A DNA stretch of 63,879 nt from Chiloscyllium plagiosum (Eukaryota): contig NC_057754.1 in the NCBI RefSeq assembly GCF_004010195.1, positions 330,918-394,796 on the forward strand, read 5' to 3'. The number at the start of each line of letters is the position of its first letter. Position 1 is the first letter of the stretch. This document shows positions 8,572 through 63,879 of the stretch, in pieces. Both the position numbers and the translations under genes were made by a program. The notes beneath the pieces are model-generated. The model made no database searches. It was not told the DNA's origin and saw only the letters and a list, made by a program, of their open reading frames with translations.

Positions 8572-8724
8572 CAGAGCTGAAAATGTGTTGCTGGAAAAGC
8601 ACAGGAAGGGCTTATGCCCGAAATGTCGATTCTCCTGTTCCCTGGATGCTGCCTGACCTGCGCTTTTCCAGCAACACATTTTCAGCTCTGATCTCCAGCA
8701 TCTGCAGACCTCACTTTCTCCTCA
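8572..8724. mobile_element. Short Penelope-like fold-back insertion (family A)
   Basis: 29-bp inverted repeat cagagctgaaaatgtgttgctggaaaagc / gcttttccagcaacacattttcagctctg; 5'-truncated hammerhead (aagggcttatgcccgaaatgtcga); flanked by direct repeat agatgatgaa. Confidence 0.75.
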
Positions 8725-8932
8725 AAGATGATGAAGAGAGCTCTGTCTAGTCAAACACTGTAGCATAGTGCTTGCAGCTAGAAAGGAGTACTAAATTAGA
8801 CTGCACATTAGTGATTAAATCACTCCAAATCAATTCCACCCAATTCATAACACACCCCAAATCAATTCCACCCAATTCATAACACACCCCAAATCAATCC
8901 CATGTCAATTCTTAACACACCCAGCAATCATA

Positions 8933-9088
8933 TTCTGGATTAGAGGTGCTGGAGGAACACAGCAGTTCAGGCAGCATCCGCGGAGCAGTAAAATCGACGT
9001 TTCGGGCAAAAGCCCTTCATCAGGAATAAAGGCAGAGAGGCTGAAGTGTGGAGAGATAAGCTAGAGGAGGGTGGAGATGGGGAGAAAT
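8933..9088 (-). mobile_element. Penelope-like pseudo-LTR fragment (family A) inserted in the left edge of the satellite
   Basis: Matches pLTR sequence at 49400-49570; contains an intact hammerhead core. Confidence 0.8.
8993..9026 (-). ncRNA. Minimal type-I hammerhead ribozyme motif, family A, intact core
   Basis: Minus strand reads UUC-CUGAUGA-A-GGGC-UUUU-GCCC-GAAA-CG-UC-GA: conserved core, 4-bp stem II, palindromic ACGU in place of helix III, GUC cleavage triplet. Confidence 0.8.
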
Positions 9089-10591
9089 AAGTCAACTCGT
9101 CAGTAACACAGAAAATCAATCCCACCTCAATTGACAACACGACCCAAATCAATCCCACCTCAATTTATAACACAACCCGAAATCAATCACTACGTCAGTA
9201 ACACGCCCCGAAATCAGGCACCACGTCAGTAACACGCCCCGAAATCAGGCACCACGTCAGTAACACGCCCCGAAATCAGACACCACGTCAGTAACATGCC
9301 CCGAAATCAGGCACCACGTCAGTAACACGCCCCGAAATCAGGCACCAGGTCAGTAACACGCCCTGAAATCAGGCACCACGTCAGTAACACACCCAGAAAT
9401 CAGGCACCGCGTCAGTAACACGCACCGAAATAAATCACCACGTCAGTAACACGCCCGAAATCAATCACCACGTCAGTAACACGCCCCAAATCAATTACCA
9501 CGTCAGTAACACGCCCCGAAATCAATCACCGTGTCAGTAACACGCCCTGAAATCAGGCACCGCGTCAGTAACACGCCCTGAAGTCAGGCACCATGTCAGT
9601 AACACGCCCTGAAGTCAGGCACCGTGTCAGTAACACGCCCCGAAATCAGGCACCGTGTCAGTAACACGCCCCGAAATCAGGCACTGCGTCAGTAACACGC
9701 CCCGAAATCAGGCACCGCTTCAGTAACACGCCCTGAAATCAGGCACTGCGTCAGTAACTCGCCTTCGAAATCAATCACCACGTCAGTAACGCCCCGAAAT
9801 CTGGCACCACGTCAGTAACACGCCCCGAAATCAGACACCATGTCAGTAACACACCCCGAAATCAATCACCACGTCAGTAACATGCCCCGAAATCAATCAC
9901 CACGTCAGTAACATGCCCCGAAATCAGGCACGACGTCAGTAACACGCCCCGAAATCAGGCACGACGTCAGTAACACGCCCTGAAATCAGGCACCGCTTCA
10001 GTAACACGCCCCGAAATCAGGCACCGCTTCAATAACACGCTCCGAAATCAGGCACCACGTCAGTAACACGCCCCAAAATCAGTTACCACGTCAGTAACAC
10101 GCCCTGAAATCAGGCACCACGTCAGTAACACACCCGGAATCAATCACCACGTCAGTAACACGCCCCGAAATCAGGCACCGCTTCAGTAACACGCCCCGAA
10201 ATCAGGCACAGCTTCAGTAACACGCCCCGAAATCAATCACCACGTCAGTAAAACGCCCCAAAATCAATCACCACGTCAGTAACACTCCCCGATATCAGGC
10301 ACCGCGTCAGTAACACGCCCAGTAATCGGGCACCGCGTCAGTAACGCCCCGAAATCAATCACCATGTCAGTAACACGCCCCGAAATCAATCACCACGTCA
10401 GTAACATGCCCCAAAATCAGGCACCACATCAATAATACCCTCCAAAATCAATCCCATGTCAACCTGTAACACACCCCGAATCGATCCAAACCTCAATTCG
10501 TAACATGTCGAAGTCAATCCCCACGTCAGTAACACACCGTGAAATCAATCGCCACGTCAGTAGCACCACCCAAAATCAATCACACCTCAAT

Positions 10592-11264
10592 TAGAACATA
10601 GAACAGTACAGCACAGAACAGGCCCTTCAGCCCACGATGTTGTGCCGACCATTGATCCTCATGTATGCACGCTCAAATATCTGTGACCATATGCATGTCC
10701 AGCAGTCTCTTAAATATTCCCAATGACCTCGCTTCCACAACTGCTGCTGGCAACGCATTCCATGCTCTCACAACTCTCTGCATAAAGAACCCGCCTCTGA
10801 CATCCCCTCTATATTTTCCGCCAAACAGCTTAAAACTATGACCCCTCCCAGGCAGCATCCTGGTAAACCTCCTCTGAACCCTCTCCAAAGCATCCACATC
10901 TTTCCTATAATAGGTCAACCAGAACTGGACGCAGTATTCCAAGTGTGGTCTAACCAAAGTTTTATAGAGCTGCAACAAGATCTCACGGCTCTAAAACTCA
11001 ATCCCCCTGTTAATGAAAGCCAAAACACCATACGCTTTCTTAACAACCCTGTCCACTTGGGTGGCAATTTTCAGGGATCTATGTGCCTGCTCACGAAGAT
11101 CCTGCTGTTCCTCCACACTGCCAAGAATCCTGTCTTTAATCCTGTACTCAACTTTCAAGTTCGACCTTCCAAAATGCATCACTTCGCATTTATCCAGGTT
11201 GAACTCCATCTGCCACCTTTCAGCCCATCTCTGCATCCTGTCAATGTCAAGCTGCAGCCTACAA
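10592..11264 (-). mobile_element. 5'-truncated CR1/HER1-type LINE with internal deletion, inserted in the satellite
   Basis: ORFs 10991-11236 and 10673-10978 (WAERWQMEFNLDKCEVMHFG, LYKTLVRPHLEYCVQFW); tail agaacatagaac at 10593. Confidence 0.92.
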
Positions 11265-14200
11265 CGTCAGTAACACACCCTAAAATCGATCACCACGTCA
11301 GTAACACACCCTAAAATCGATCACCACGTCAGTAACACACCCTAAAATCGATCACCACGTCAGTAACACACCCTAAAATCGATCACCACGTCAGTAACAC
11401 ACCCTAAAATCGATCACCACGTCAGTAACACACCCTAAAATCGATCACCACGTCAGTAACACACCCTAAAATCGATCACCACGTCAGTAACACACCCTAA
11501 AATCGATCACCACGTCAGTAACACACCCTAAAATCGATCACCACGTCAGTAACACACCCTAAAATCGATCACCACGTCAGTAACACACCCTAAAATCGAT
11601 CACCACGTCAGTAACACACCCTAAAATCGATCACCACGTCAGTAACACACCCTAAAATCGATCACCACGTCAGTAACACACCCTAAAATCGATCACCACG
11701 TCAGTAACACACCCTAAAATCGATCACCACGTCAGTAACACACCCTAAAATCGATCACCACGTCAGTAACACACCCTAAAATCGATCACCACGTCAGTAA
11801 CACACCCTAAAATCGATCACCACGTCAGTAACACACCCTAAAATCGATCACCACGTCAGTAACACACCCTAAAATCGATCACCACGTCAGTAACACACCC
11901 TAAAATCGATCACCACGTCAGTAACACACCCTAAAATCGATCACCACGTCAGTAACACACCCTAAAATCGATCACCACGTCAGTAACACACCCTAAAATC
12001 GATCACCACGTCAGTAACACACCCTAAAATCGATCACCACGTCAGTAACACACCCTAAAATCGATCACCACGTCAGTAACACACCCTAAAATCGATCACC
12101 ACGTCAGTAACACACCCTAAAATCGATCACCACGTCAGTAACACACCCTAAAATCGATCACCACGTCAGTAACACACCCTAAAATCGATCACCACGTCAG
12201 TAACACACCCTAAAATCGATCACCACGTCAGTAACACACCCTAAAATCGATCACCACGTCAGTAACACACCCTAAAATCGATCACCACGTCAGTAACACA
12301 CCCTAAAATCGATCACCACGTCAGTAACACACCCTAAAATCGATCACCACGTCAGTAACACACCCTAAAATCGATCACCACGTCAGTAACACACCCTAAA
12401 ATCGATCACCACGTCAGTAACACACCCTAAAATCGATCACCACGTCAGTAACACACCCTAAAATCGATCACCACGTCAGTAACACACCCTAAAATCGATC
12501 ACCACGTCAGTAACACACCCTAAAATCGATCACCACGTCAGTAACACACCCTAAAATCGATCACCACGTCAGTAACACACCCTAAAATCGATCACCACGT
12601 CAGTAACACACCCTAAAATCGATCACCACGTCAGTAACACACCCTAAAATCGATCACCACGTCAGTAACACACCCTAAAATCGATCACCACGTCAGTAAC
12701 ACACCCTAAAATCGATCACCACGTCAGTAACACACCCTAAAATCGATCACCACGTCAGTAACACACCCTAAAATCGATCACCACGTCAGTAACACACCCT
12801 AAAATCGATCACCACGTCAGTAACACACCCTAAAATCGATCACCACGTCAGTAACACACCCTAAAATCGATCACCACGTCAGTAACACACCCTAAAATCG
12901 ATCACCACGTCAGTAACACACCCTAAAATCGATCACCACGTCAGTAACACACCCTAAAATCGATCACCACGTCAGTAACACACCCTAAAATCGATCACCA
13001 CGTCAGTAACACACCCTAAAATCGATCACCACGTCAGTAACACACCCTAAAATCGATCACCACGTCAGTAACACACCCTAAAATCGATCACCACGTCAGT
13101 AACACACCCTAAAATCGATCACCACGTCAGTAACACACCCTAAAATCGATCACCACGTCAGTAACACACCCTAAAATCGATCACCACGTCAGTAACACAC
13201 CCTAAAATCGATCACCACGTCAGTAACACACCCTAAAATCGATCACCACGTCAGTAACACACCCTAAAATCGATCACCACGTCAGTAACACACCCTAAAA
13301 TCGATCACCACGTCAGTAACACACCCTAAAATCGATCACCACGTCAGTAACACACCCTAAAATCGATCACCACGTCAGTAACACACCCTAAAATCGATCA
13401 CCACGTCAGTAACACACCCTAAAATCGATCACCACGTCAGTAACACACCCTAAAATCGATCACCACGTCAGTAACACACCCTAAAATCGATCACCACGTC
13501 AGTAACACACCCTAAAATCGATCACCACGTCAGTAACACACCCTAAAATCGATCACCACGTCAGTAACACACCCTAAAATCGATCACCACGTCAGTAACA
13601 CACCCTAAAATCGATCACCACGTCAGTAACACACCCTAAAATCGATCACCACGTCAGTAACACACCCTAAAATCGATCACCACGTCAGTAACACACCCTA
13701 AAATCGATCACCACGTCAGTAACACACCCTAAAATCGATCACCACGTCAGTAACACACCCTAAAATCAATCAATCACCACGTATCACATCCTAAAATCAA
13801 TCACCACGTCAGTAACACACCCTAAAATCGATCACCACGTCAGTAACACACCCTAAAATCGATCACCACGTCAGTAACACACTATAAAATCGATCACCAC
13901 GTCAGTAACACACTCTAAAATCAATCACCACGTATCACATCCTAAAATCAATCACCACGTCAGTAACACACTCTAAAATCGATCACCACGTCAGTAACGC
14001 ACTCTAAAATCGATCACCACGTCAGTAACACACTCTAAAATCGATCACCACGTCAGTAACGCACTCTAAAATCATCAATAACGCACCCTAAAATCAATCA
14101 CCACGTCAGTAACACACCCTAAAATCAATCACCACGTCAGTAACACACTCTAAAATCGATCACCACGTCAGTAACGCACCCTAAAATCAGTCACCACGTC

Positions 14201-17200
14201 AGTAACGCACCCTAAAATCAGTCACCATGTCAATAATCCACCCTAAAATCAATCACCACGTCAATAACGTACCCTAAAATCAATCACCACGTCAGTAACG
14301 CACCCTGAAATCAATCACCGTCAGTAACACACCCTGAAATCAATCACCACCTCAATTCATACCACACTCTCCAAATCAATCCCACCTCAATTCATAACGC
14401 CCTGAAATCAATCACCACGTCAGAAACACACCCGGACATCAATCACCACATCAGTAACGCGCCCCAAAATCAACCACATCCGAAATACACCCCAAATCAA
14501 TCCCACCTCAATGCACACCGTGCCCTGAAATCAAATACTACGTTAGTAACGCACCCCAAAATTGATCACCACATCAGTAACACAACCCAAATCAATCTCT
14601 CCTCAATTCATAACACATCCCGAAATCAATCACCACATCAGTAACACATCCCAAAATCAATCTCCAGGTCAGTGACACACCCTGAAACCAAACAGAATGT
14701 CAGTAACACATCCCAAAATCAATCTCCAGGTCAGTGACACACCCTGAAACCAAACAGAATGTCAGTAACACATCCCAAATCAATCCCAACTCAACTCGTA
14801 AAATAACCCAATTCAATCTCAACTCCGTTCATAACACACAATGCAATCAATCGTCATGTCAGTGACACCCCTCCCCCAAAATCATTCATAATGTCAGTAA
14901 AACACCCAAAGTCAATCACGTCAGTAACACCCCCTCGAATTCAGTCACTACATCAGTAACACACCCTGATATCAATCACTGCGTCAGTAACACACCCTAA
15001 AATCAATCACTACATCAATAACACACCCTAAAATCAATCACAACGTCAATAACACACTCGAAATCAATCACCACGTCAATAACGCACCCGAAATCAATCA
15101 CCACGTCAATAACGCACCCGAAATCAATCACCACATCAATAATGCACCCTAGAATCAATCACCACGTTAATAACACACCCGAAATCAATCACGTCAGTAA
15201 CACCCCCTCGGATTCAGTCACGACATCAGTAGCACACCCTGAAATCAATCACTGCGTCAGTAACACACCCCGAAATCAATCACGTCAGTAACACACCCCA
15301 AAATCAATCTCCAGGTCAGTGACACACTCTGAAATCAAACAGAATGTCTGTAATACATCCCAAATCAATTCCACCTCAACCTGTAAAACAGCCTGAAATC
15401 AATCAACTCGTCAGTAACGCATCCCAAATCAATCCCACCTCAATTCATAATACACCCCAATTCAATCTCAACTCAATTAATAACACACCCTGAAATCAAT
15501 CATGTCAGTGACACCCCTCCACCAAAATCATTCATAATGTCAGTAACACACCCTAAAACCAATCACCACGTCAGTAACATACCCGAAATCAGGCACCGCG
15601 TCAGAAACACACCCCAAAATCAATCACCGCGTCAGTAACACACCCCGATATCAATCACCGCGTCAGTAACACACCCCGAAATCAATCACCGCGTCAGTAA
15701 CACACACCGATATCAATCACCGCGTCAGTAACACACCCCGAAATCGATCACCGCGTCAGTAACACACCCCGATATCAATCACCGCGTCAGTAACACACCC
15801 CGAAATCAATCACCGCGTCTGTAACACACCCCGAAATCAATCACCGCGTCAGTAACACACCCCGATATCAATCACCGCGTCAGTAACACACCCCGAAATC
15901 AATCACCGCGACAGTAACACACCCCGATATCAATCACCGCGTCAGTAACACACCCCGAAATCAGGCACCACGTCAGAAACACACCCGGATATCAATCACC
16001 ACGTCAGAAACACACCCGGATATCAATCACCACGTCAGTAACACACCCCGATATCAATCACCACATCAGTAACACACCCCGATATCAATCACCACGTCAG
16101 TAACACACCCCGATATCAATCACCACGTCAGTAACACACCCCGATATCAATCACCACGTCAGAAACACACCCCGATATCAATCACCACGTCAGTAACACA
16201 CCCCGATATCAATCACCACGTCAGTAACACACCCCGATATCAATCACCACGTCAGTAACACACCCCGATATCAATCACCACGTCAGTAACACACCCCGAT
16301 ATCAATCACCACGTCAGTAACACACCCCGATATCAATCACCACGTCAGTAACACACCCCGATATCAATCACCACGTCAGTAACACACCCCGATATCAATC
16401 ACCACGTCAGTAACACACCCCGATATCAATCACCACGTCAGAAACACACCCGGATATCAATCACCACGTCAGAAACACACCCCGATATCAATCACCACGT
16501 CAGAAATGCACCCGGATATCAAGCACCACAACAGAAACACACCCCGATATCAATCACCACGTCAGAACAAACCCCAAAATCAATCACCACGTCAGAAATG
16601 CACCCTGAAATCAATCACATCGTAAGACGACCCAAATCAATCCCACCTCAATTTGTAATTCACTCCAAATCAATCAACCTCAGTTCACACTGCACTCCGA
16701 AATCGATCACGTCAGTAACACACCCTGAAATCGATCATCACGTCAATAACACACTCTGAAATCGATCATCATGTCAGTAACACACGCTGAAATCGATCAT
16801 CATGTCAGTAACACACGCTGAAATCGATCATCACGTCAGTAACACACCCTGAAATCGATCATGTCAGTAACACACGCCGAAATCGATCATCACGTCAGTA
16901 ACACACGCCGAAATCGATCATCACGTCAGTAACACACGCTGAAATTGATCATGTCAGTAACACACGCTGAAATCGATCATCACGTCAGTAACACAGGCTG
17001 AAATCGATCATCATGCATCATGTCAGTAACACACGCTGAAATCGATCATCACGTCAGTAACACAGGCTGAAATCGATCATCATGTCAGTAGTCAGTAACA
17101 CACGCTGAAATCGATCATCACGTCAGTAACACACCCTGAAATCGATCATCATATCAGTAACACACGCTGAAATCGATCATCATGTCAGTAACACACCCTG

Positions 17201-18786
17201 AAATCGATCATCACGTCAATAACACACGCTGAAATCGATCATCACGTCAATAACACACCCTGAAATCGATCATCATGTCAGTAACACACGCTGAAATCGA
17301 TCATCACGTCAGTAACACACCCTGAAATCGATCATCACGTCAATAACACACGCTGAAATCGATCATCACGTCAATAACACACCCTGAAATCGATCATCAC
17401 GTCAATAACACACCCTGAAATCGATCATCACGTCAATAACACACCCTGAAATCGATCATCACGTCAATAACACACCCTGAAATCGATCATCACGTCAATA
17501 ACACACCCTGAAATCGATCATCACGTCAATAACACACCCTGAAATCGATCATCACGTCAATAACACACCCTGAAATCGATCATCACGTCAATAACACACC
17601 CTGAAATCGATCATCACGTCAATAACACACCCTGAAATCGATCATCACGTCAATAACACACCCTGAAATCGATCATCACGTCAATAACACACCCTGAAAT
17701 CGATCATCACGTCAATAACACACCCTGAAATCGATCATCACGTCAATAACACACCCTGAAATCGATCATCACGTCAATAACACACCCTGAAATCGATCAT
17801 CACGTCAATAACACACCCTGAAATCGATCATCACGTCAATAACACACCCTGAAATCGATCATCACGTCAATAACACACCCTGAAATCGATCATCACGTCA
17901 ATAACACACCCTGAAATCGATCATCACGTCAATAACACACCCTGAAATCGATCATCACGTCAATAACACACCCTGAAATCGATCATCACGTCAATAACAC
18001 ACCCTGAAATCGATCATCACGTCAATAACACACCCTGAAATCGATCATCACGTCAATAACACACCCTGAAATCGATCATCACGTCAGTAACACACCCTGA
18101 AATCGATCATCACGTCAGTAACACACCCTGAAATCGATCATCACGTCAGTAACACACCCTGAAATCGATCATCACGTCAGTAACACACCCTGAAATCGAT
18201 CATCACGTCAGTAACACACCCTGAAATCGATCATCACGTCAGTAACACACCCTGAAATCGATCATCACGTCAGTAACACACCCTGAAATCGATCATCACG
18301 TCAGTAACACACCCTGAAATCGATCATCACGTCAGTAACACACCCTGAAATCGATCATCACGTCAGTAACACACCCTGAAATCGATCATCACGTCAGTAA
18401 CACACCCTGAAATCGATCATCACGTCAGTAACACACCCTGAAATCGATCATCACGTCAGTAACACACCCTGAAATCGATCATCACGTCAGTAACACACCC
18501 TGAAATCGATCATCACGTCAGTAACACACCCTGAAATCGATCATCACGTCAGTAACACACGCTGAAATCGATCATCACGTCAGTAACACACTCTGAAATC
18601 GATCACCACATCAGTAACACACCCTGAAATTGATCATCACGTCAGTAACACACGCTGAAATCGATCATCACGTCAGTAACACACCCTGAAATCGATCACC
18701 ACGTCAATAACACGCCCTGAAATCGATCACCACGTCAGTAACACATCCTTGAACTAACTATATTGTCATCAATAGCATACTCCCCA

Positions 18787-19877: not shown

Positions 19878-22800
19878 TGTGGGTATGTGTGTGTGTGTCG
19901 CACCCAGAACAGTGAGCTCTGTGCGTGTGTCACTTAAAACACAGACCAGTGAGCTCTGTGCGTGTTTGCCAGTCGCACCCTGAGCAGTGAGCTCTGTGTC
20001 AGTCGCGCCCAGAGCAGTGAGCTCTGTGACAGTCGCAGTGAGCTCTCTGTCAGCCGCACCCTGTGTCGGTCGCATCCAGAGCAGTGAGCTCTGTGTCAGT
20101 CGCACCCAGAGCAGTGAGCTCTGTATGTGTGTCGGTCGAGTGGTGGGCTGTGCGCGCCTGTGTCAGCTGCAACCTGAGCAGTGAGCTCTGTGTCAGTCGC
20201 ACCCAGAGCAGTGAGCTCTGTGTGTCGGTTGAGCGGTGGGCTGTGCGCGCCTGTGTCAGCTGCAACCTGAGCAGTGAGCTCTGTGCGTGTGTCATTCGCA
20301 GACTGAGCAGTGAGCCTTGTGTGTGCCAGTTGCGCGGTGAGCTCTGTGTGCGCGTGTGTCAATTGCATGGTTAGCTGTGTGCGCGCGCGTGTGTGTGTCA
20401 ATTGCATGGTTAGCTGTGTGCGCGCGCGTGTGTCAATTGCATGGTTAGCTGTGTGCGCGTGCGTGTCAATTGCATGGTTAGCTGTGTGCGCGCGTGTCGG
20501 TCGCACCCTGAACAGTGAACGTTGTGCGCGCGTGTCAGTCGCACAGTGAGCTCTGTGCGCGCGTCGGTTGTGCAGTGAGCTCTGTGCATGTTTGTCAGTC
20601 GCGCAGTGAGCCTTTGTGCGCGCGTCGGTTGCGCAGTGAGCCCTGTGCGCGCGTTGGTTGCGCAGTGAGCCCTGTGCGCGCGTCGGTTGCGCAGTGAGCC
20701 CTGTGCGCGCGTCGGTCGAGCAGTGAGCCCTGTGCGCGCGTCGGTCGAGCAGTGAGCCCTGTGCGCGCGTCGGTCGCGCAGTGAGCCCTGTGCTCCTGTC
20801 GGTCGCGCAGTGAGCTCTGTGCGCCTGTCGGCCCGCAGTGAGCTCTGTGCTCCTGTCGGCCGCGGTCTGTGCATGGGTCAGTCGCGCACTGAGCCGTGAG
20901 CTCTGCGCGTCTCAGTCGCGCAGTGAGCTCAGTGTGTGTCAGTCGCGCAATGAGCTCTGTGCGTGTGTGTTAGTCACACAGTGAGTTCCGTGCGTGTCAG
21001 TCGCGCAGTGAGTTCCATGCGTGTCAGTTGCGCAGTGAGTTCCATGCATGTGTGTCAGTCGCGCAGAATGCTCTGTATGTGTGTCAATCGCACAGTGAAC
21101 TTTGCAAGTGTGTTAATCGCGCCTTGAGCTCTGCACGTGCGTGTCAGTAGGTCAATGAGCTCTGTGCGCATGTATCAGTCACTCAGTAAGCTCTGTGCGC
21201 ATTAGTCGCGCAGTGAGCTTATGCACGTGTCAGTCACGCTGTGTACTCTGCGCGTGTATCAGTCATCTGCGGAGCCGTGAGCTGTGCGTGTGTGTCAGTC
21301 ATGTGCGGAGCCATGTACTCTGCACGTGTGTGTCAGTCATGTGCGGAGTGGTGAGCTCTGCGCCTGTGATTGTTGCCTTCTGACCAGTGAGCTCTGCATT
21401 TGTGTCAGTCACGGAGTGAGCTCTCTGCGTGTTTGCCAGTCGCGCCCAGAGCAGTGAGCTCTGTGTCAGTCACGCCCAGAGCAGTGAGCTCTGTGTGTCG
21501 GTTGAGCGGTGGGCTGTGCGCGCCTGTGTCAGCTGTAACCTGAGCAGTGAGCTCTGAGCGTGTGTCATTCGCAGATTGAGCAGTGAGCGTTGTGCGTGCC
21601 AGTCGCGCGGTGAGCTCTGTGTGCGCGTGTGTCAATTGCATGGTTAGCTGTGTGTGCGTGTGTGTCAATTGTATGGTTAGCTGTGTGCGTGCATGTCGGT
21701 TGCACCCTGAACAGTGAGCGTTGTGCGCGCATGTCAGTCGCAGTGAGCTCTGTGCGCGCATTGGTCACGCAGTGAACTCTGTGCATGTTTGTCAGTCGCG
21801 CAGTGTGCTCTGTGCGTTTGTCAGTTGCATAGTGAGCTCTGTGCGTGTTTCAGTCGCGCAGTGTGCTCTGTGCGTTTGTCAGTTGCACAGTGAGCCCTGT
21901 GCGTGTTTCAGTCGCACAGCGAGCGCTGGACGCCTGTCGGTCGCTCAGTGAGCTCTGTGCGTATTTGTCAGTCGCGCGGTGAGCCCTGTGCGCGCGTCGG
22001 TCGCGCAGTGAGCCCTGTGCGCGCGTCGGTCGCGCAGTGAGCCCTGTGCGCGCGTCGCGTCGGTCGCGCAGCGAGCCCTGCGCGCGCGTCGGTCGCGCAG
22101 CGAGCCCTGCGCGCGCGTCGGTCGCGCAGCGAGCCCTGCGCGCGCGTCGGTCGCGCAGCGAGCCCTGCGCGCGCGTCGGTCGCGCAGCGAGCCCTGCGCG
22201 CGCGTCGGTCGCGCAGCGAGCCCTGCGCGCGCGTCGGTCGCGCAGCGAGCCCTGCGCGCGCGTCGGTCGCGCAGCGAGCCCTGCGCGCGCGTCGGTCGCG
22301 CAGCGAGCCCTGCGCGCGCGTCGGTCGCGCAGCGAGCCCTGCGCGCGCGTCGGTCGCGCAGCGAGCCCTGCGCGCGCGTCGGTCGCGCAGCGAGCCCTGC
22401 GCGCGCGTCGGTCGCGCAGCGAGCCCTGCGCGCGCGTCGGTCGCGCAGCGAGCCCTGCGCGCGCGTCGGTCGCGCAGCGAGCCCTGCGCGCGCGTCGGTC
22501 GCGCAGCGAGCCCTGCGCGCGCGTCGGTCGCGCAGCGAGCCCTGCGCGCGCGTCGGTCGCGCAGCGAGCCCTGCGCGCGCGTCGGTCGCGCAGCGAGCCC
22601 TGCGCGCGCGTCGGTCGCGCAGCGAGCCCTGCGCGCGCGTCGGTCGCGCAGCGAGCCCTGCGCGCGCGTCGGTCGCGCAGCGAGCCCTGCGCGCGCGTCG
22701 GTCGCGCAGCGAGCCCTGCGCGCGCGTCGGTCGCGCAGCGAGCCCTGCGCGCGCGTCGGTCGCGCAGCGAGCCCTGCGCGCGCGTCGGTCGCGCAGCGAG

Positions 22801-41646: not shown

Positions 41647-41740
41647 CATTAAGTCTGTTATCATACAACATGTAATCTTTTGTCATTTAGTCTCTCCTGC
41701 CACCAATACATGCCCACCAAACCGATCACAGAGCTCACCT

Positions 41741-49501: not shown

Positions 49502-49637
49502 TAGAGGCAGGGTGCCTGTAGATTGGAGAGATAAATGAGAGGGGGTGTGGGGGTGGGGAGAAAGTAGCATAGAGTACAATAGGTGAATGGGGGTGAGGAT
49601 GGAGGTGATAGGTCAGAGAGGAGGGTGGGAGAAGGTA

Positions 49638-51957: not shown

Positions 51958-52014
51958 CTGGATGACATTCTGGAACAACAGCTTGGTAATCGGATCCAAC
52001 CCGGATCATACTGT
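51958..52014 (-). CDS. RCOR2: RCOR2 coding exon 2 (ELM2 start)
   Basis: (D)SMIRVGSDYQAVVPECHP; ctttag / gtacaa; 57 nt. Confidence 0.96.
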
Positions 52015-52154
52015 CTAAAGTAGAGAAAAAGCAAGACATAATATTCAGAAAAAATCAAGTAGTTAAATATGGAGTAGGAAATTTTGAGCGGATGGGGAGA
52101 CCGTTGAAGAAATGTAAAATTGTGGGATTTCATCCCAATGACAATCAAACATAT

Positions 52155-52650
52155 GGAGAGGAGTTGGCAAGGTGAGGCTTGGAGACATGCAATTAGCATC
52201 ACAGAGGAGTGGGCAAGGTGAGACCCTGTAACAGGCAGTCAGTGTCTCTGAGAGGAGCGGGTGAAATGAGGACCATGTGACAGGCAATCAGCATCACTGA
52301 GAGAAGCGGGCGAAGTGAGGACTGTGTGACAGGCAGTTGGTGTCACTGAGGGGAGCGGATGAAGCATGAACTCTGTGACAGGCAGTTTGTGTCATTGAGA
52401 GGAGCGGGTGACGTGAGGACCATGTGACAGGCAGTCAGCATCACTGAGAGGAGCAGGTGAGGTGAGGACTCTGACAGGCAATTTGTGTCACTAGAGGAAA
52501 GTGTGAGGTGAGGACCCTGTAACGGTGAGTCAGCGTCACTGAGAGGAGTGGGTGAGGTGAGGACCCTGTAACAGTGAGTCAGCATCACTGAGAGGAGAGT
52601 GTGAGGCGAGGACCCTGTAACAGTGAGTCAGCATCACTGAGAGGAGCGTT
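52155..52650. repeat. ~49-bp minisatellite (cagcatcactgagaggagcgggtgaggtgaggaccctgtaacagtgagt), about 10 copies
   Basis: Period 49 read directly. Confidence 0.9.
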
Positions 52651-52659
52651 GCAATAAGA

Positions 52660-53415
52660 CAACTGGTACAATATCCAGGCTTGGGCTGACAAGTGGCTCG
52701 TTCCATTCACGCCACATGAGTGCCAGGAAATGACCACCTCCAATAAGAAACAATCGAACTATTACCCCTTAACATCCTCACTGAATTCCCCCAACATCAA
52801 CATCAACATCCTGGGGATCATCATTGACCAGAATTGGACTCACCACGGAAATACAGTGGCGACAACAGCAGCTCAGAGATTAGGACCACTGCTGCAGGTA
52901 TTTGATTTCCTGGCTCCCCAAAACCTATCCAGAATCTATATGGTACATGTGAGGAGTCTGATGAGTGCAGCTCCAACAATATTCAAGAAGCAATACCAGC
53001 CAGTACAAAGCAGCCCACTTGATTGACACTATATCCACAAGAATCTACTCCCTCCACCACTGACGCTCAGTAGTAACAGTGTGTACTATTTACAATATGC
53101 ACTGTAGTTCACTAAGGTTTCTTAGACAGCACCTTCTAATCCCATAACTACTTCCATCCAGAAGGACAACAGCCCAGATAAATGGGAACATCATTCCCTT
53201 CAAGCCACTCACCATTCTGATATGGAAAATTACTGCCTTTCCCTCACTGTCACATGGTATGAAATTCCCTCCCTAATAACTTTGCGGGTCCACCTACCAC
53301 ACAGTCTGCAGCGGTTCAAGGTGGCAGCTCACCGCCTCCTTCTCAAGAAAAACTAGGGATGAACAATAAATGCTTGCCAGCCTTTGATGCCCACATTCCA
53401 AAAGTGAATTAAAAA
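52660..53415 (+). mobile_element. LINE 3' part (same family as 44390-46005, 48670-49070, 57995-58640)
   Basis: ORF remnant NILGIIIDQNWTHHGNTVATTAAQRLG; tail ctagggatgaacaataaatgc..gatgcccacattcc. Confidence 0.75.
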
Positions 53416-53419
53416 ATTA

Positions 53420-54965
53420 GTGATATGGACTTAAATGCAGGCAGTATGACTAAGTTTGCAGGTTACACAAAGAATGTTAGGGATAGACATAAACTGCAGT
53501 GGCAAATGGAAGTCAACCCGGAAAAATGTGAGGTGATGCAATTGGGGAGGGCTACTAATGCAAGGGATTGCATTATGAATGAAAAAATCGACGTTTGTAG
53601 AGATAAATGTAGGGGGGTGGTGGTGTAGCAGGAAAATCAACGTATCGAGCAAAAGCCCTTCATCAGAAATGAGGCTAAGCCCTTCATCAGGAATAAGAGT
53701 AGGAAAATTGCATTTATCTCTCCACCTCTGAGGCTCCCAGCCTCATTCCTGATGAAGGGCTTTTGCCCAAAATGTCGATTTTCTTGCTCCTCGGATGCTG
53801 CCTGACCTGATGTGCTTTTCCTGCACCACACTCTCAACTCTAATCTCCAGCATCAGCAGTACTCACTTTTGCCTAGTTGATTTTAACCTTACTGCGAATC
53901 CTCTTCCAAGGGTGCCTACCTCGAAGAAGTTCTACTCCTCTCTCTACAAGGAACGCAGTGAGTCTGGAATCCCCAGGTCATCTCCTCTGCCCTGAAGCTC
54001 TTCAGCCACATTCTGGATCAGACTCACCCATCTATCCATCTTCCTTCCCACCTATCCACTCCACCCTCCCCTCTGACCTATCACCTTTACCCTCACCTCC
54101 ACCCAGCTATTGCACTCTCAGCTACCATCCCTCCCAGCTCCACCCCCTCCCATTTATCTCTCCACCCATGAGGCTCCCAGCATCTTTCCTGATGGAGAGT
54201 TTTTGCCCGAAATGCCGAGTATCCTGCTCCTCGGATGCTGCCTGACCTGCAGTGCTTTTCCAGCATCACACTCTCGACTTGCATTATGAATGGTAGAACC
54301 CTGAAAAATACAGAAGATCAAAGATACCATCCTGTGCATATCCACAGACTCCTGATGGTAGCAGATGGTTAAGAAGGCATATGGAATACTTTCCTTTTTT
54401 AGCAGAGCCATAGAATAAAAGATCAAGGATGCTAACTTGGAACTGTTCAAGATGCAATTAGAGTACTGCATGAATTTTGGTCACCATATTATAGGAAGAA
54501 TGAGATTGTACTGGAAAGGATACAGAGAAGATTTACCAAGATGCTGCCTGGGCTGGAGTATCTGAACTATTAGGAAAGATTTGATAGGTGGGGTTGTTTT
54601 CCTTAGATTAATGAAGATTGAGGCGACATGATAGGAAGGAACTATGAGGGCATAGAGAGGGTGGGTAATCAGGCACTTTAATAACGGAGAGGAGGGCATA
54701 GATTTAAGAGTTAGAAAGTGAGAGGAAAGTTTAAGTAATTTTTTTCTCTCAGAGGATGGTGAGGGACTCATACTCACTGCCTGAAAGTGTGGTTGAGTTA
54801 GAAACTCTTGTAATATTTGAGAAATATTTAGACATTCACTTGTATTACAACAGTCTCCAGGGCTATGGGTCAGTAACTGGGAAGTGGATTAGTGTAGTTA
54901 GATCTGTGGACTACTGTGAACACGATGGGCTTAATGGCTTCTTCTATTTTGTAAAGGTCTAAGAG
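53420..54965 (+). mobile_element. Degenerate CR1-type LINE interrupted by a Penelope-like insertion
   Basis: WQMEVNPEKCEVMQLGR remnant; resumes after 54292. Confidence 0.75.
53582..54278 (+). mobile_element. Penelope-like insertion (family A): scrambled inverted pieces plus two tandem pLTRs with mutated hammerheads
   Basis: TSD ttgcattatgaatg at 53568-53581 and 54279-54292; motifs at ~53635(-), 53748(+), 54188(+). Confidence 0.85.
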
Positions 54966-54987
54966 TCTATGAAGATGTAATCCTCAC

Positions 54988-55189
54988 CATGCAGGCTGTG
55001 CTGATCCCGTTTCTTCCACTCAATAGAAACAGCAGACATAGTTCCATGTGAGCGTTCCTCATCGCTGCTCTCCTCTTCAGAGTGCCGTGGGTGTTGGCTC
55101 CCATTGTTGCTTCCATTGTTAATGCTTTTCATCCTGGTTCCACGGGACAGGATTCCTGCTGAACCCGACTTCTCCATCATTACTGGCAT
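54988..55189 (-). CDS. RCOR2: RCOR2 first coding exon
   Basis: MPVMMEKSGSAGILSRGTRMK...HSEEESSDEERSH resembles RCOR2 N-terminus (MPSVMEK..GILSR..HSEDDSSEEEHSH); first phase-1 GT donor is CATG|gtgagg at 54988; acceptor-like sequence just upstream of ATG implies a further 5' exon. Confidence 0.85.
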
Positions 55190-55509
55190 TGCTGTGGGAG
55201 CTGAGGAAGGAAACAGATGGAAAAAACAAAGTTATATCCTGAACACATCTTCACAATGTCATGTGATAGGAATGAAAAGGGATACAGGTTCAAAGGGCAA
55301 CAACTCAATACCAAGGAGCATTCTGCAGCGTTGAGGAGAGGTGTAGATTAAGTGTTACTAGTAACCTAAAGGCAACTATGACCTGACCAAAAGGCAAATT
55401 ATCCACAGAAACAAATTTCTTCCAAAAACTCTGGCCAATTAAAAATATTTTTTAAATGTGCTGGTTTGAATGTTGCTTATTTTCATCCACCAAGGAATGC
55501 AGTGGTGAA

Positions 55510-55670: not shown

Positions 55671-58505
55671 GTACTGGTAAACCCAAACCCCAAAAGCTGC
55701 ACTACCAACCCAAACACTGACATCCTAATTCTGTGTGTAAGCACTTATCCCACAAAACCCTAAAATATTTCAGCAGGACCGTTCCTTGTTCTTTTACCAG
55801 ACAGTATTTGCTCATCAAATAATGTGGCCCCTCTCATATGTCACCTATCATGTCCAAATTATTAGCTAATCTCTCAAAGATAACTGAACTGTCTGCTTTG
55901 ATGCTCAGGCACAATGGATGAGAAAGGTGACAGGCTTGATGCCATGTACTGATCTGGGTTAAGCTGATCTGCTGAAATGGCATGAAGACTTCACATAGCC
56001 TCTCTTCCTGAGTTAAAGAATAAGAGAGAGGAGATACCTATGGGATGCCCTGCCCCGAGTGCTGCCTAGTGGTTTTCACTGTTAGATTGGACTTCATTGT
56101 GATGCGACCACATTTGAATGGCTCAGTGGTATTCAACTTCCAAGTCTCAAGGAATGAACAATGGGAGAACATTACAGATCTCACGAGCTTAACTCTGATC
56201 TCAATAGATAACCACACACACAAAATATCTCTAGCGAGGCCTCTTGACTAGCTGTCAAGCACAGGAATATTGGCTGATTACTACCGCTCTCTACTCCAGG
56301 AGTATTGAAAGTCATCTTAAGCTAGGGTAAAAGGAAGGTAAGTAATGGTGAGAAAATGAGTTAAAAAGCTTAAGTGTCTAAGTACACAAGTGCTTAAAAA
56401 CTGATAGATTGGTACAAAAGGAATGAAAAGGGTTATTGGAATGATGGAATGTTTCATAGAAAGATAGATGACAAAGACAGGTAGAAACATATGTTGTAAA
56501 GAGGACATCAGGAGGTTTCAAACTGACAGAGTGGGTGAAAATCTGGCAGATGGAAACCGTAAAGACTGTTTCTTTTCATTTTTCTATATTTTTGACTGTG
56601 GACTAAAAGGGGAAAAACAGTTTAAAAAAATAAGGATTGTGGAAAGGATCACTTTACTTTTAAAAAAGTAGGCCACTGCCAAAGGGAGTGGTAGATGCAG
56701 GTATAGTTACACCATTTAGAAGAAATTTGGACAGATACATGAATAGGAAAGGTTTAGAGGGATATGAGTCAAACAGGCAAATGGAACTAGTTTAGTTTAG
56801 GTAACCTGGTTGGCGTGGACAAATTGGACTGAAGTTTTGTTTCCATGCTCTATGACTCGAAGTTCTGTTTACACTGCTGTTTGTTCAAGCAATGGAGGAT
56901 GTTTAGATGCAGACAAGCTGGAACCAAGAGTGTGTACAAAATAAGATTCAGCTGGCAACAATAGCTGATTGCTCTGTGGAAAGCCGACCAATAGTAGACG
57001 TCAAAAACCTTTTGCCTGCCAGTAACTATATATTTGGCTCCTAGGTAGCTGAACAATTTGTAGGTGTGAAATATTTGGTCAGAAGCCATCAAACCTCCAG
57101 AAAGGAAGGTGCCTTCATTTTCTCTGAAATGATAAACATCTGAAGCCTGAAGAAGGCCAGTTTATTTTCCCTCATCAGTGTAAACTGTGGCCTTTAACCA
57201 AGAGGTTAATGACTTTATCAGTGTGAACCAGTCACTCTGCAAGCAAGAGAAAGTACCTGGAAAAAGAAAGATCCAGGATCAGCAAGTCCTGACAAGCCAA
57301 AAGAATGATCTCAGCAAACCTTATGGACAGGGATCATTCCCAGTTATTCCCTCACCCTTTTTTTTGGGTTTGTCTGTCTCAGTATGTTGGGCAGCTTTAT
57401 CAGGAGCTTAGAGTTTTAATTAGTAGAGTATTAGGACGAAAGATCCTAACTGGATCTACCTCTAGCTAGAATCTATTTATTTATAATAAATAGTAGTCTT
57501 TCGTGAGTCACAAAAAATTAGTATGTAGGTACAGAATGTGACTAAAAATATTAATGGAATGCTTTTCTCAATTACAAGAGGAACTGAACACAAAGGAAGG
57601 ATGTCATGTTTCAATCATACAAGGCACTGGGAGACTATATCATAAATGCTGCATCCACTTTTGGTCTCCTTACTTCAAGAAGAATATAATGTATTGGGGG
57701 TGGATTAAAGATATCTGGTGTTATGAGGAAATGCTGGACAGACTGCTTGTTTCCACACTGGTTCAGAAGTGATAGGTGCTTTGAGTGCATAAGATCCTGA
57801 ACAGTCTTAACAAAGTGAATGGGAAAAAGGGCTGTTCCCTCTTATGGATGACTCCAGAACTAGGGGACACTGTCTAAAAATTAGGGGGTCACCCTTTTTG
57901 ACAGAGATGAGGAGAAACTTACTATCTGACAGTAAAAAACTTTGAAAAACTCTGCCTCAGAAAGTGGGAGAGGCAGGGTTATTGAAACATTTTAATCTAT
58001 TCATGTGATGTGGGCTTCACCAGCATTTATCATTACCTATCACAAGGTGCTCTTACAGTGGTGAATGTAGGCTTCCTTCATGAACCACTGCAGTCTATTT
58101 GGTTAATATATACCTACAATGCTGTTCAGGAAGAACTTCCAAAACTTGACCTAGTGCCATTAAAGGAATGGCAATATATTTCCAAGTTAGGATGGTGAGC
58201 GCCTTGGAAGGGATACTGGGGATGGTGGTGCTCCCACTTATCAGCTGCCCTTGTCCTTCTAAATGGTCAAGATTCTGGGTTTGGAAGGTGCTGCCTAAGG
58301 AGCCTTGGCAAACTGCTGCAATGCATCTTGTAGGTGGCACACACTACTACTACTGAGCATTGATGGTGGAAAGAATGGACGTTGTGGGTGTAGTGCAAAT
58401 CAAGTGGCTGATTTGTCCTGAGCAGTGTCAAGCTTCTTCAGTATTGTTGAAGCTGCACTCATCCAGGCAAATGGGGAGTATTCCATCACACTCATGACTT
58501 GTGTC

Positions 58506-58619
58506 CAAACGTGTGGTGCTGAAAAACGCAGCAGGTCAGGCAGCATCCGAGGAGCAGGAGAATTCCAGCGCCACACTTTTTGACTCTGATCTCCAGCATC
58601 TGTAGTCCTCACTTTCTCC
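58506..58619. mobile_element. 114-bp Penelope-like fold-back remnant (family A), hammerhead deleted
   Basis: Opposed pLTR pieces; 20-bp TSD tcacactcatga(c/t)ttgtgtc at 58486-58505 and 58620-58639. Confidence 0.75.
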
Positions 58620-60235
58620 TCACACTCATGATTTGTGTCTTGTTATAGAGTCAAAGAGTCATACAGTGCAGAAAAGGTACTTCAACACATTGAATCTGCA
58701 CTGACAATAAATACCACTAAAGACATGCTAATTCCAATTTCCTGTTACAATATTTCAAGTGCTTGTTCAAATTTTTTTAATAGTTTGTATGGTTTACAGC
58801 GTCTACTACCTTCCCAGGCAATTCCAGATTCCCAGCATCCTGACAGAAAATGTTTTTTACTCAAAGCCACTCTGAATCTCCTGACCATACCCTAAAACTA
58901 TGCCCCTTTCTGACTGACCCCTCAACCAAGGGGAAGAACTGCTCCTTATTCGCCCTGTCCATACCCCTCATATTTTTATATTCCTCAATATTGTTCCCCC
59001 TCAGCCTTCTGTGCTCTAAAGAAAACAATCTAAGCCTATCTAGCCTTTCCTTCTACTCAATTTATTCACTCCAGGCAACATCTTACTAAATGTCCTCTGT
59101 ACCCCCTCTAGTGGTATTACATCCTTCTTGTTATATCCAGTTGTGGCCTAACCAACACTGTATAAAACTCTAATATCACTTCCTTGTTCTTGTACTCTAT
59201 GCCATGACTGATGAAAGCAAGTGACCCATACGCCTTCTTAGCTAGCCAACTTTAGAGATCTGTGAATAATTACCCCAAGATCCTTCTATTCCTCTAAATT
59301 ATCTAGTGTCCTGCCCATTCATTAAATAATCCTTCATCTTGTTTCTTCTTTCAGTTTCCCTGAATTCCATGTGCTTTAATCTTCTCAAACAGTCTCCCAT
59401 GTGGGACCCTGTCAAACATTTTGCTGAAATCCATATAAATTACATCAACTGAACTTCTCTCATCCACACACACGTGATCACATTTTTGACAAATTCTCAT
59501 AAATTTGTTAGGCATGACCTCCCTCTAACAAAGCCCTAATTAACCTATGCTTTTCCAAGTGGATATTAATTCGCCCGTTCAGAACTTTCTCCAATAAGTT
59601 GCCGACCATTGTTGATATTGGATAGGCTCCAGGGAGTCAAGAGGTGAGTTACTTACTGCAGGACTCCTGGTTTTGATCTGCAGTTGTAACCAAAGTACTT
59701 ACATAGGCGAGAAACATCCAAGATGTTCATCATAAGGACTTCAAAGCTGGGTAGTGCCACTGAATGTCAAGGGGCAGAGGTAGATTGTTGCAAGGGAATC
59801 AAAGGCAATTGGGATCGGCAAGAATGGAATTCAAAACACAATGGATCAGCCCTAAAGTTATTGAATGGCTGAGCACGCTTTAGGAGCTGAATGGCTGACT
59901 TCTGCTCTTAGTTCATACACTGGCCTTTATCTGCGTTGAGATGACATCAAGAGTCTGTACAGGGATACAGACGGGTTAAGCGAGTTTGCAAAAGCTTGGC
60001 AAATGGAATATTAAAAGGGGAAAATGTGAGGCTATGCACTTTAGAAAGGAGCTGAATGTTATTTAAATGGAGAAAGCATAAAGCTACAGAGGGATTTAGA
60101 AATTCTCATGCAAAAATCACAAAGTTAGCAAACAAGTTCAGCAGGTAATAAGGAAGACAAATGGAATGTTGGCCATTATTTCAAATGGAGCTGCTCTTCC
60201 AATCATAGACCAGTTCTCTGCCATAGTTGCTAATG

Positions 60236-61459: not shown

Positions 61460-62372
61460 TAAGTTAGAATGGACATGTCATGGGGGAAGTGGGAGAGGGA
61501 GTTGAAATGGATGGTTACAGGAAGGTGGGGTTGGTTGGTGCATATGGACCAGACATGTTCCCTGAACTGTTCTGAGAGTTTGTACTCATCTCCCAAATGT
61601 AGAGAAAACCACATCGAAAACAACGGATGCAGTAAATGAGGTTCGAGGATATGCAGGTACATCTCTGCCGGATTTGGAGTGATCCCTTGGGCGCCCACAC
61701 CTTCCCCCCTACCTTTGTCCAAGGCCTCAGAAGATCATTCCAAAACCAGCAGAAATTTACGTGCATATCCTCAAACCTCATTTACTCCACCTGTTGCTCT
61801 CAATGTGGTCTCCTCTACATTGGAAACAGTTCAGGAAACATCTCTGGCCAGTATGCATCAACCAACCCAACTTTCCTGTAGCCATCCATTTCAACTTCCA
61901 CCACCTAATCAAGGTCACCCGCAAACTGAGGAGGAACATCTCATCTTCCACTTCAGGAGCCTACAACTACATGGCATCAACACTGAATTTATCAGTTTCC
62001 AAATTTCCCCTCTCCTCCCCCCACCCCCATGCCAGATCTAACCCTCCGACTCAGCTCTGCCTTTTGACCTGACCTACCTGTTCATCTTCCTTCCTACTTG
62101 GCCACTCCACACTTCCCATCAACCTGTCACAATCACATCCTACCTTCGCCACCAATTGCCCTTCCAAATACCTTTCCCCTAGACTACCCCTCCATTTATT
62201 TCTCAGCCCCCTTCCCCCTCCCCCCTCTCCCTCTCCAGTCCTGACAAAGGGTTAAGCCCGAAACGTTGATTCTCTTGTTCCTCAGATGCTGCCTAACCTG
62301 CTATGCTTTTTCCAGCGCCACATTTTATTGGCAGTGACTACTCCAGCAGTTGTAGTCCTCACTGTCTCCTAG
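61460..62372 (+). mobile_element. Penelope-like element 3' part (GIY-YIG endonuclease remnant and pLTR) with an inverted GIY-YIG segment at 61460-61685
   Basis: FTCISSNLIYSTCCSQCGLLYIG on +, CTCISSNLIYCIRCFRCGFLYIWE on -; degenerate hammerhead ctgacaaagggttaagcccgaaacgttga at ~62241. Confidence 0.85.
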
Positions 62373-62429
62373 CCTCAGTTTAGACTCCCATCTGAAGAAC
62401 TGCCATTTAGTTGAGAACTCCAAACATCT

Positions 62430-62915
62430 GACCTGGAGAAGGTGCACAGGAAATAGACAAAAATGATACCTGGATCTAAGAAGGTTAAATTATGACAGCA
62501 GTTTTTAGAAACTAGGCTTACATTCCTTTGAATTCAGAAGATAAAAGAGTGATTTAAATAAGTAGTTTAAACTGCTCAAAAAGATTTGAAAAATTAGATG
62601 GACAGAAACTATTTTCTTTAATGGGGAAATCAAGATCATGGGGATGTTCATTTTAAAATTACAGATAGGCAGTTCAAGAATGAAATCACAAAGGATTGTA
62701 AAAATCTTGACCTCTCTCTCTCTCTCTCTGAAGACTCAATGGATGCTCAGGATCAAGTGCAGCTTTCAAGACTGAAATTGATTGACTTTTAGTGGAAAAG
62801 GATATCAAGGGATATGGAACAAATGTGGGTAAATGGAGTCCAGATACCAATTAGATGTGATCTAATTGAAAGGTGGACCTGACTCACAGGGCTGAATAGC
62901 TACTCGTGTTCCTCT
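62430..62915 (+). mobile_element. Degenerate CR1-type LINE 3' part
   Basis: ctggagaaggtgcacagg...gggctgaatagctactc tail. Confidence 0.65.
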
Positions 62916-63717
62916 GAATAGTTTAGCTGGACCATAAGACAGGAAGAAAGTTTTCAACTTGCTATTAGAGAAAAAAAAGAGGATTGAAAGGAGTCCCTCA
63001 CTGCAGCAACAATCCAATCTGACAACTCAATTGCACATTCATACAAGACCATAAGAGCAACTCCAGAAAACACTATTCACAAAGAATTACACATATTGAA
63101 AAAATGTATTTGTTTCAGCCAATTCCTAAGTCATCTCCTCTACCAAATCTACTCTGCCTTGTCCCTGGCATCACCCTAACTCAACCATGCCTGAGAACAG
63201 AGATCAATTCCTTTACTAGACTATGGACCAGACAGCAATGACTAAAACCATCAGATCACCCAAGGAGTCTGCTGCAGGATCCCCTCAATTTTGCCTGATT
63301 GCAGACCTCAAAACAAATATATTTATTAAACGTGGAAGAGTCACAGCTTCATACAAAATAGTTTCACTGAGAAGCCCACTGAGGCTCATTCCACCTCAAA
63401 AGGCAATATCCCCCACCCTTATGGGAGCTAATCAATTTTCCATTTCTCTCTCACACATGCCTACAAGTCAGCAACACGTCACCCCCACAATCAAGATTTC
63501 CTAGGTTTAGAGTAAAATAAGTGACACATTCCAGGGGAAAGTTACTGCCTGTAGCCTGAAGATTGCCAGTACGTAAGGATCTGCTCTTTAATGCACTCAG
63601 TCAGTTCACAGCTCTGTGACTCTTCTCCCTCCCTTGGCTTAGATCGAGGAAGCCTAGCAGCCATTCTGTATATCTGAGAATAGAGAAGACCATTCAGCAC
63701 AGTTAAGCTTAGTTCTA

Positions 63718-63879
63718 TGAGGAGAAAGTGAGGTCTGCAGATGCTGGAGATCAGAGCTGGAAATGTGTTGCTGGAAAAACGCAGCAGGTCAGACAGCATC
63801 CAGGGAACAGGAGAATCGACGTTTCGGGCATAAGCCCTTCTTCAGGAATGAGGAAAGTTTGTCAAACTTTCCTCATTCC
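63718..63879 (-). mobile_element. Penelope-like fold-back (family A), truncated by window edge
   Basis: pLTR on -; palindrome centre ggaatgaggaaagttt-gtc-aaactttcctcattcc at 63845-63879. Confidence 0.85.
63815..63848 (-). ncRNA. Minimal hammerhead ribozyme motif, family A, intact core
   Basis: UUC-CUGAAGA-A-GGGC-UUAU-GCCC-GAAA-CG-UC-GA. Confidence 0.8.

Follow-up and report, generated by a model that had tools for sequence, protein, structure and literature searches.

The window analysed here, a stretch of 63,879 nucleotides from the bamboo shark Chiloscyllium plagiosum (assembly GCF_004010195.1, contig NC_057754.1, positions 330,918 to 394,796), carries minimal hammerhead ribozyme motifs dispersed through a MARK2-like gene and RCOR2. 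These motifs sit in the pseudo-long terminal repeats (pLTRs) at the ends of two Penelope-like retrotransposon families, termed A and B. We hold with considerable confidence that they are minimal hammerheads of the 3′ pLTRs, that the window copies are truncated or inverted and likely passive, and that the master elements likely form a double hammerhead. An earlier note on this DNA had identified the motifs, which are of a known kind in new families, correctly, and had overstated their intactness and implied activity. They are not new in kind, because the motif and its place have both been published.

Hammerhead motifs in the window

All 13 sites named in the earlier note were located close to where it had placed them and proved homologous to two repeat families, and its description of minimal type-I hammerheads with an extra nucleotide after A9 and a 4-nt palindrome was supported. 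The claim that the catalytic core is kept held for five sites and failed for the other eight when the core was scored position by position (site numbers give C3 of the core). Every core nucleotide is kept at 9023(-), 47973(-), 49498(-), 51394(+) and 63845(-). Four of the 13, namely 9023(-), 49498(-), 51394(+) and 63845(-), pass a strict descriptor, which 47973(-) fails, its first helix-I pair being broken and its stem II containing two G-U pairs. The damaged sites have lost either the CUGA half, as in the copies at 8605 and 47985 that had been called truncated, or at least one of U4, G5, G8, A9, G12, A14 and U16.1. Stem II measures 4-5 bp in the window motifs, and a 14th, partial core, derived from a 24-nt duplication, lies at 53690(-). 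The reversed control of the strict scan gave no match in the window, and a loose match at 44377(-) was dropped for want of a palindrome and of any family resemblance. The 13 motifs were counted as eight insertion events, because target-site duplications of 10-15 nt bound five of the units; four of the eight insertions contain head-to-head hammerhead copies. The features are as follows, with the strand given for single copies.

8562-8735: family A2 insertion with a short inverted arm, 10-nt target-site duplication
8605-8627 (+): family A2 hammerhead lacking CUGA, starting at +5
8926-9087 (-): truncated family A1 copy, antisense to the MARK2-like gene
8996-9023 (-): family A1 hammerhead, core intact, stem II 4 bp, ACGU palindrome
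47842-48072: family B head-to-head pair, 13-nt duplication
47945-47973 (-): family B hammerhead, core intact, first helix-I pair broken
47985-48007 (+): family B hammerhead lacking the CUGA half
49356-50603: family A1 insertion with a long minus copy (open reading frame fragment, assembly gap, pLTR) and an inverted short plus copy, 15-nt duplication
49471-49498 (-): family A hammerhead with intact core in an RCOR2 intron, in sense orientation; cleavage predicted after GUC, at 49471
50069-50386 (-): family A Penelope-like open reading frame fragment, covering the region beyond the reverse transcriptase catalytic motif; the 49498 hammerhead follows downstream on this strand
50495-50522 (+): family A hammerhead relic, G5 and G12 lost according to the core table
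51254-51489: family B head-to-head pair, 12-nt duplication, one long predicted hairpin (-167 kcal/mol)
51344-51372 (-): family B hammerhead relic without U4 and G12, lying sense in an RCOR2 intron, poly(A) position 51314
51394-51422 (+): family B hammerhead with intact core, antisense to RCOR2; stem II of 5 bp, helix I of 3 bp and AGCU palindrome
51432-51452 (+): family B poly(A) hexamer ATTAAA at 51432-51437 and non-templated A position at 51452, from sequence and RNA reads
53568-54292: family A1 composite insertion, 14-nt duplication
53639-53666 and 53667-53690 (-): family A1 relics in the composite, the first without A14, the second partial
53749-53776 and 54189-54216 (+): family A1 partial tandem in the composite, both cores broken
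62236-62370 (+): older family A relative by sequence, hammerhead at 62241-62267 with G8 changed to A
63720-63879 (-): young family A2 copy by sequence, intact hammerhead at 63818-63845, sense in the first RCOR2 intron

The two inverted copies of the unit at 49356-50603 are 89% complementary. Within the composite, 53749(+) has lost G12 and the palindrome, and 54189(+) has lost A9, U16.1 and the palindrome. The palindromic inversion junction of the copy at 63720-63879 runs into an assembly gap just beyond the window. A further family A head-to-head insertion, absent from the earlier note, lies at 58484-58638; it has what appears to be a target-site duplication, about 18 nt long, and neither arm contains a hammerhead. 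An Rfam match to MIR2084 at 51323-51443, far under threshold, corresponds to the inverted-repeat hairpin; long hairpins of this kind could be substrates for editing or small-RNA production.

Carrier elements

The open reading frame (ORF) fragment at 50069-50386(-) has relatives across the genome that are 80-93% identical to it, with at least 149 other matches among the best 150 of 50,461 candidates scored. Frames for a reverse transcriptase (RT, with YIDD), a CX4CxxC linker and a GIY-YIG endonuclease (EN) were found at 20 family A loci; the motif lies downstream on the same strand in at least eight of these, the remainder being cut by gaps or truncation. For family B, 13 of 14 loci have RT, linker and GIY-YIG ahead of the motif, all on one strand, and at one locus (L184) the motif stands directly ahead of the N-terminal part of the ORF. 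Natural frames running from RT into GIY-YIG occur in loci L143, L159 and L171. Pfam matches on the element frames were weak and under the cut-off for both RVT_1 (E 1.7e-4) and GIY-YIG (E 1.1e-3), and Pfam gave no match on the window's own ORF fragment. The proteins of the two families are 28% identical, and both carry the linker, of the CX2-5CxxC type, between RT and EN. Such a cysteine linker marks the Neptune and Nematis clades (PMC8557442, cited, like the other sources below, for the sections available), and we infer that families A and B belong to Neptune, because this is the linker-bearing clade reported in vertebrates.

Truncation at the 5′ end, an inverted 5′ copy, a partial tandem and an optional tail are all seen among the copies. 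Their 3′ ends cluster at about +75-90 and +120-128, overall 85-125 nt downstream of the motif; nearly every insertion therefore carries the motif, and its copy number is likely a by-product of this position. The two clusters fit the two internal RT start sites of an anole element (PMC11167929). Neither a single unbroken full-length ORF nor an unbroken full-length element was recovered from the loci. Assembly gaps fall inside Penelope insertions at 49639-50068, just past 63879 and at many of the element loci, and full elements are therefore under-assembled.

Abundance in the genome

A generic core pattern matched 204,709 times in the genome against 162 times in the control, one per 17 kb, which bears out the very large genomic count that had been proposed. 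Exact patterns yielded 21,180 matches for family A (CTGATGA form) and 15,860 for family B, with 0 in the controls. A sample of 125 pieces of 10 kb chosen regardless of content (1.25 Mb in total, of which 1.19 Mb are not N) contained 68 strict motifs, against 0 in the complemented and reversed controls of the 1.25 Mb. Relics spanning the greater part of the motif numbered 257 in the 1.19 Mb (one per 4.6 kb). The generic pattern was somewhat more frequent in the sample than in the genome as a whole (93 matches against about 72 expected). The density of one motif per 5 kb read from the window is accordingly right for relics and too high for intact cores. At least three further hammerhead families, differing in stem II (up to 7 bp) and helix I, were observed, with examples at L063:7878, L117:5382, L099:671, L186:4089 and L247:9395.

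Fold and covariation

Covariation was assessed on 96 sequence-only matches in which position 10.1 was imposed by the pattern; the counts are of copies, not of independent events, and the independent units number about five or six families. Pair 2.1-1.1 is paired in 91 of the 96 (C-G 66, A-U 12, U-A 9, U-G 4) and pair 2.2-1.2 holds in 92 as U-A, A-U or C-G, while the third and fourth helix-I pairs hold in only 48 and 51. In stem II, 10.2-11.2 is paired in 93/96, 10.3 in 87 and 10.4 in 84. The palindrome centre is CG in 71 and GC in 23 (94/96 together), and the 3-8 pair is C-G in 93/96 and U-A in 3/96. A pattern for the U3-A8 family matched 2,776 times in the genome and 476 times in the control; examples of this Penelope-type family are the loci L203, L205, L218 and L225. 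Among the 68 strict hits, the extra nucleotide between 9 and 10.1 is present in every one (0 or 1 was allowed), as is a 2-nt palindrome centre without helix III (0-6 allowed). The covariation check proposed earlier thus came out positively, with compensated pairs across families in the first two helix-I pairs, stem II, the palindrome and the 3-8 pair, and master elements were selected for the fold, because these helices and the 3-8 pair covary across families. The anatomy is that already published for minimal hammerheads.

That the hammerhead likeness arose by chance in an amplified repeat could be argued from the Rfam scan of the window, which matched no hammerhead family, and from the monomer folds, whose stability does not exceed that of shuffled sequences (z -0.4 to -1.6). 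The core is nevertheless retained, with compensated helices, in at least five sequence families, the control count is tiny beside the genomic one, and the motif type and place are published. The probability of a chance resemblance is negligible in our estimate, and the cross-family covariation refutes it.

5′ ends of young copies

Setting aside 27 family C copies, 187 with less than 90% identity and 13 lying at gaps or edges left 113 young copies of the 340 in the sample. Their 5′ starts fall at -10..+4 of C3, the upstream edge of the hammerhead, in 48 cases; the others lie at +5..+24 (17), +33..+46 (18), -15..-11 (2) and -294..-16 (15), seven reach -300, and six are near the cut site at +25..+32. 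We had considered that cleaved RNA might leave a fossil in copies starting at +28, and rejected this: several of those six are inversion junctions or internal deletions. The templates were mostly uncut, and began or stopped the enzyme at the upstream edge, because the young-copy starts cluster there. A splice site as the cause of the pile-up is not favoured, since no AG stood at the boundary in the copies inspected and 12/154 share upstream sequence. Subfamily divergence contributes in old copies, and the count was redone on young ones. Palindromes at inverted junctions are known (PMC3846280), and our literature search found no report of breakpoints piling up at the motif.

Inversion junctions account for 32 of the 51 copies starting at -12..+6; the remaining solo copies divide into 11 that have a target-site duplication and eight that lack one. 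These 11 belong to the many solo copies of 90-130 nt that have duplications and share both ends, as would be expected if the short copies were an independent non-autonomous family, resembling a short interspersed element or a retrozyme, with its own RNA. We regard this as improbable. The same sequence runs on into the 3′ untranslated region and the ORF in longer copies, head-to-tail arrays are absent from the window sites, and no diagnostic short-class sequence was seen, although no dedicated test for one was made.

A more specific proposal, which we put forward tentatively and as somewhat less than an even chance, is that the hammerhead marks the start of the copied RNA and is left uncut, so that RT from the first tail site runs off the 5′ end and makes stubs, those of family B delivering poly(A) sites. 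Transcripts would begin a few bases before helix I, and RT would start 90-130 nt downstream. RNA depth rises at the hammerhead 5′ edge, which is no proof of a start site, because most genomic copies begin there. The Drosophila Penelope has an internal promoter with a start about 120 nt before the hammerhead region (PMC2377424, with PMC4209133).

Polyadenylation at family B copies

The RNA data come from one single-cell poly(A) run of this or a related species, of which about 2% of the reads were sampled. On one family B copy (L173:4807-4827), 746 of 2,499 reads carry non-templated A from +57 or +60, beginning 12-15 nt after ATTAAA and about 30 nt past the uncut hammerhead. Main-strand read depth drops there from about 1,130 to 215, and it is flat over the cut site, with no pile of ends. 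Both window arms at 51.3 kb show the same poly(A) position (59 and 63 of 1,402 reads). AATAAA or ATTAAA occurs in the aligned part of 39/53 family B copies and in the last 110 nt of 5/196 family A copies. The reads derive from many loci in a single sample, and a cut product of 30 nt would escape this library; what they document is therefore uncut polyadenylated RNA, not an absence of cutting. The copy at 51372(-), sense in an RCOR2 intron, could end RCOR2 transcripts early at 51314. No report of a pLTR poly(A) signal was found in the literature searched.

These reads also bear on the possibility that masters preserve the fold chiefly as a signal, whether structural or for a start (setting the RNA 5′ end, binding protein or stopping RT), with cutting rare or dispensable. 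Polyadenylated RNA uncut at the cut site is common, and the 5′ starts of young copies gather at the upstream edge (48/113) and seldom near the cut site (6). In addition, insertion in vitro persists in anole hammerhead mutants, none of the reads in that system ended at the cut site (PMC11167929), and Naiad elements proliferate in the absence of the motif (PMC8557442). Catalysis, on the other hand, requires the compensated 3-8 pair and the G12, GAAA and UH that are fixed across families, and the anole motif does cut with protein (PMC11167929). We consider this alternative rather unlikely; it is compatible with the explanation preferred here, and the two do not exclude each other.

Host genes and orientation

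The host genes in the window are represented by two features.

25959-26327 (+): open frame with the last coding exon (KA1 domain, near 26.2 kb) of the MARK2-like gene
36968-55198 (-): RCOR2 coding exons, with a further 5′ exon beyond the window; the motifs from 47.9 kb on are all intronic

The exon at 37.6 kb has bamboo-shark RCOR2 as its best match, and spliced RCOR2 contigs confirm four introns across 46.5-55.0 kb. An earlier exon, about 9.5 kb before the window, is one that we take to belong to the MARK2-like gene; the copies at 8.6 and 9.0 kb are intronic in this plus-strand gene because exons lie on either side. All motifs of the window are thus intronic. Only those at 47973, 49498 and 63845 are core-intact and sense to the host RNA, each with an inverted arm beside it, while 9023 and 51394 are core-intact and antisense. 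The piece 51391-51425, which the earlier note had proposed for cleavage assays, is antisense to RCOR2 pre-mRNA. The MARK2-like gene also contains, within an intron, a 31-bp satellite of about 290 copies in two arrays (9168-18749), and a GC-rich 29-bp satellite (21853-23383, 52.6 copies, 96% matches) that is enclosed by a degenerate array from 19.9 to 24.0 kb.

Proposed cycle and decay of inserted copies

In an active master, two repeats on one RNA would likely pair via the 4-nt palindrome as a double hammerhead, with predicted cuts after GUC or CUA, and the element's own protein would probably assist cleavage, as in the anole element. Copying would start just downstream of the motif, and nearly every insertion would include it. 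After insertion, copies decay, and in host pre-mRNA they are mostly antisense, mutated, alone or, by prediction, locked in an inverted-arm duplex.

G12 is the general base (PMC6155905) and lies in a CpG; it departs in 41/174 copies (23.6%), against 253/1,064 (23.8%) at other CpG positions, and U16.1 departs in 10/212 against 94/2,342 for other T. All 11 scored core positions are kept in 104 of the 177 motif-spanning copies. A relative on the opposite strand lies within 1.5 kb of 177 of the 340 copies, one on the same strand of 70, and an intact same-strand neighbour within 4 kb was counted for 8/68 intact motifs inside the 10-kb pieces. No tandem head-to-tail array exists at the window sites, where the sole close same-strand pair (53749, 54189) has two broken cores, and the 49.4/50.5-kb arms have a predicted duplex of -265 kcal/mol. 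The load is likely passive, because G12 is lost as fast as neutral CpG positions are and most partners are inverted rather than tandem; the roughly 200,000 copies in the genome that look intact are likely to be passive remnants, not active cutters.

The active ribozyme load implied by the earlier note, in which sense copies with the same palindrome on one or two RNAs would pair and cut host transcripts, is not supported by these data, given also that only three core-intact motifs of the window are sense. In its favour are about 200,000 intact cores, the 104/177 core-complete spanning copies, two intact ACGU motifs (49498 and 63845) sense in RCOR2, and the lower variability of the GAAA adenines. 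Those two motifs, however, are 14 kb apart in different introns, and 49498 has an inverted arm; G12 decays neutrally, forward and reverse counts are uninformative on gene orientation, RNA depth does not change over the cut site of family B (in a library blind to cut products), and published dimers are weak (PMC4209133). We judge such a load very improbable.

Several results weigh against our preferred explanation of masters acting as double hammerheads and passive copies. Only 2-3 bp of helix I are contiguous, and alternative dimer folds (-24 to -32 kcal/mol) are more stable than the double hammerhead as modelled (-13 to -18 kcal/mol). No intact hammerhead-ORF-hammerhead element was recovered among the loci, and young copies preserve no fossil of cleaved templates. 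Finally, GAAA adenines depart in 10/634 cases (1.6%) against 48/850 (5.6%) for other A (p 4e-5), and non-CpG core columns vary less than others (2.9% vs 5.3%). We read this low variation as master constraint plus alignment-edge bias, and selection on inserted copies may play a part. The low predicted dimer stability is in line with the weak published activity.

Comparison with known systems

The minimal hammerhead ribozymes that Cervera and de la Pena (2014, PMC4209133) described in the pLTRs of metazoan Penelope-like elements, inactive as monomers and weak as dimers, resemble ours in the core boxes, the lack of helix III, the palindromic 15.2-16.2, the extra nucleotide between 9 and 10.1 and the G10.1-C11.1 pair, as well as in the U3-A8 variant, the mostly solo or opposite-strand truncated copies and the several families per genome. 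They were reported in fish Xena, Poseidon and Neptune elements, and no shark appears in the available text or two supplements of that source. Their numbers are about 9,000 in Xenopus tropicalis and 4,000 in the coelacanth, compared with about 200,000 here, under differing descriptors. In the Schistosoma families helix I is 4-5 bp (PMC4209133); in families A and B helix II, at 4-5 bp, and contiguous helix I, at 2-3 bp, are both shorter than in Schistosoma. No report on shark elements was found in a search that left subscription papers and Repbase/Dfam largely outside.

The Poseidon element PAc of the anole Anolis carolinensis (Frangieh et al. 2024, PMC11167929) likewise has a pLTR hammerhead, two 3′ end positions downstream, with and without a tail, and no sign of cleaved RNA as insertion template; its cleavage is protein-assisted and not needed for insertion in vitro. 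In contrast, families A and B carry the CX4CxxC linker, which is not a Poseidon mark, and the PAc ORF starts inside the hammerhead, whereas that of family B follows the tail (L184). The endonuclease-bearing Penelope-like elements of the Neptune and Nematis clades (Craig et al. 2021, PMC8557442) share the RT, cysteine linker and C-terminal GIY-YIG, heavy 5′ truncation, partial tandems, an adjacent inverted 5′ copy and an optional 30-40 bp tail, whereas the 5′ pile-up at the hammerhead edge and the poly(A) site past the motif are not met in the sections of that source available. Animal non-LTR retrozymes also use type I hammerheads from Penelope-like pLTRs, and were present in one cartilaginous fish of that survey (bioRxiv 10.64898/2026.07.22.740005; PMC7229834). 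They form head-to-tail arrays with one hammerhead per unit (bioRxiv 10.64898/2026.07.22.740005), unlike the dispersed solo or inverted copies found here, which are continuous with coding elements.

Significance

The literature leaves the function of the Penelope hammerhead unsettled (PMC8557442, PMC11167929). What is notable in this genome is the scale, with about 200,000 intact cores, more than 20 times the published vertebrate counts (obtained with differing descriptors), and the fact that so many copies record the mechanism. The copy ends argue against cleaved RNA as the insertion template and predict a precise RNA start, and the use of the family B poly(A) site suggests an effect on the host that needs no catalysis. 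If copied RNA does begin at an uncut hammerhead, the host would really be affected through ectopic 3′ ends from family B stubs, numbering in the tens of thousands, and not through cleavage of RNA.

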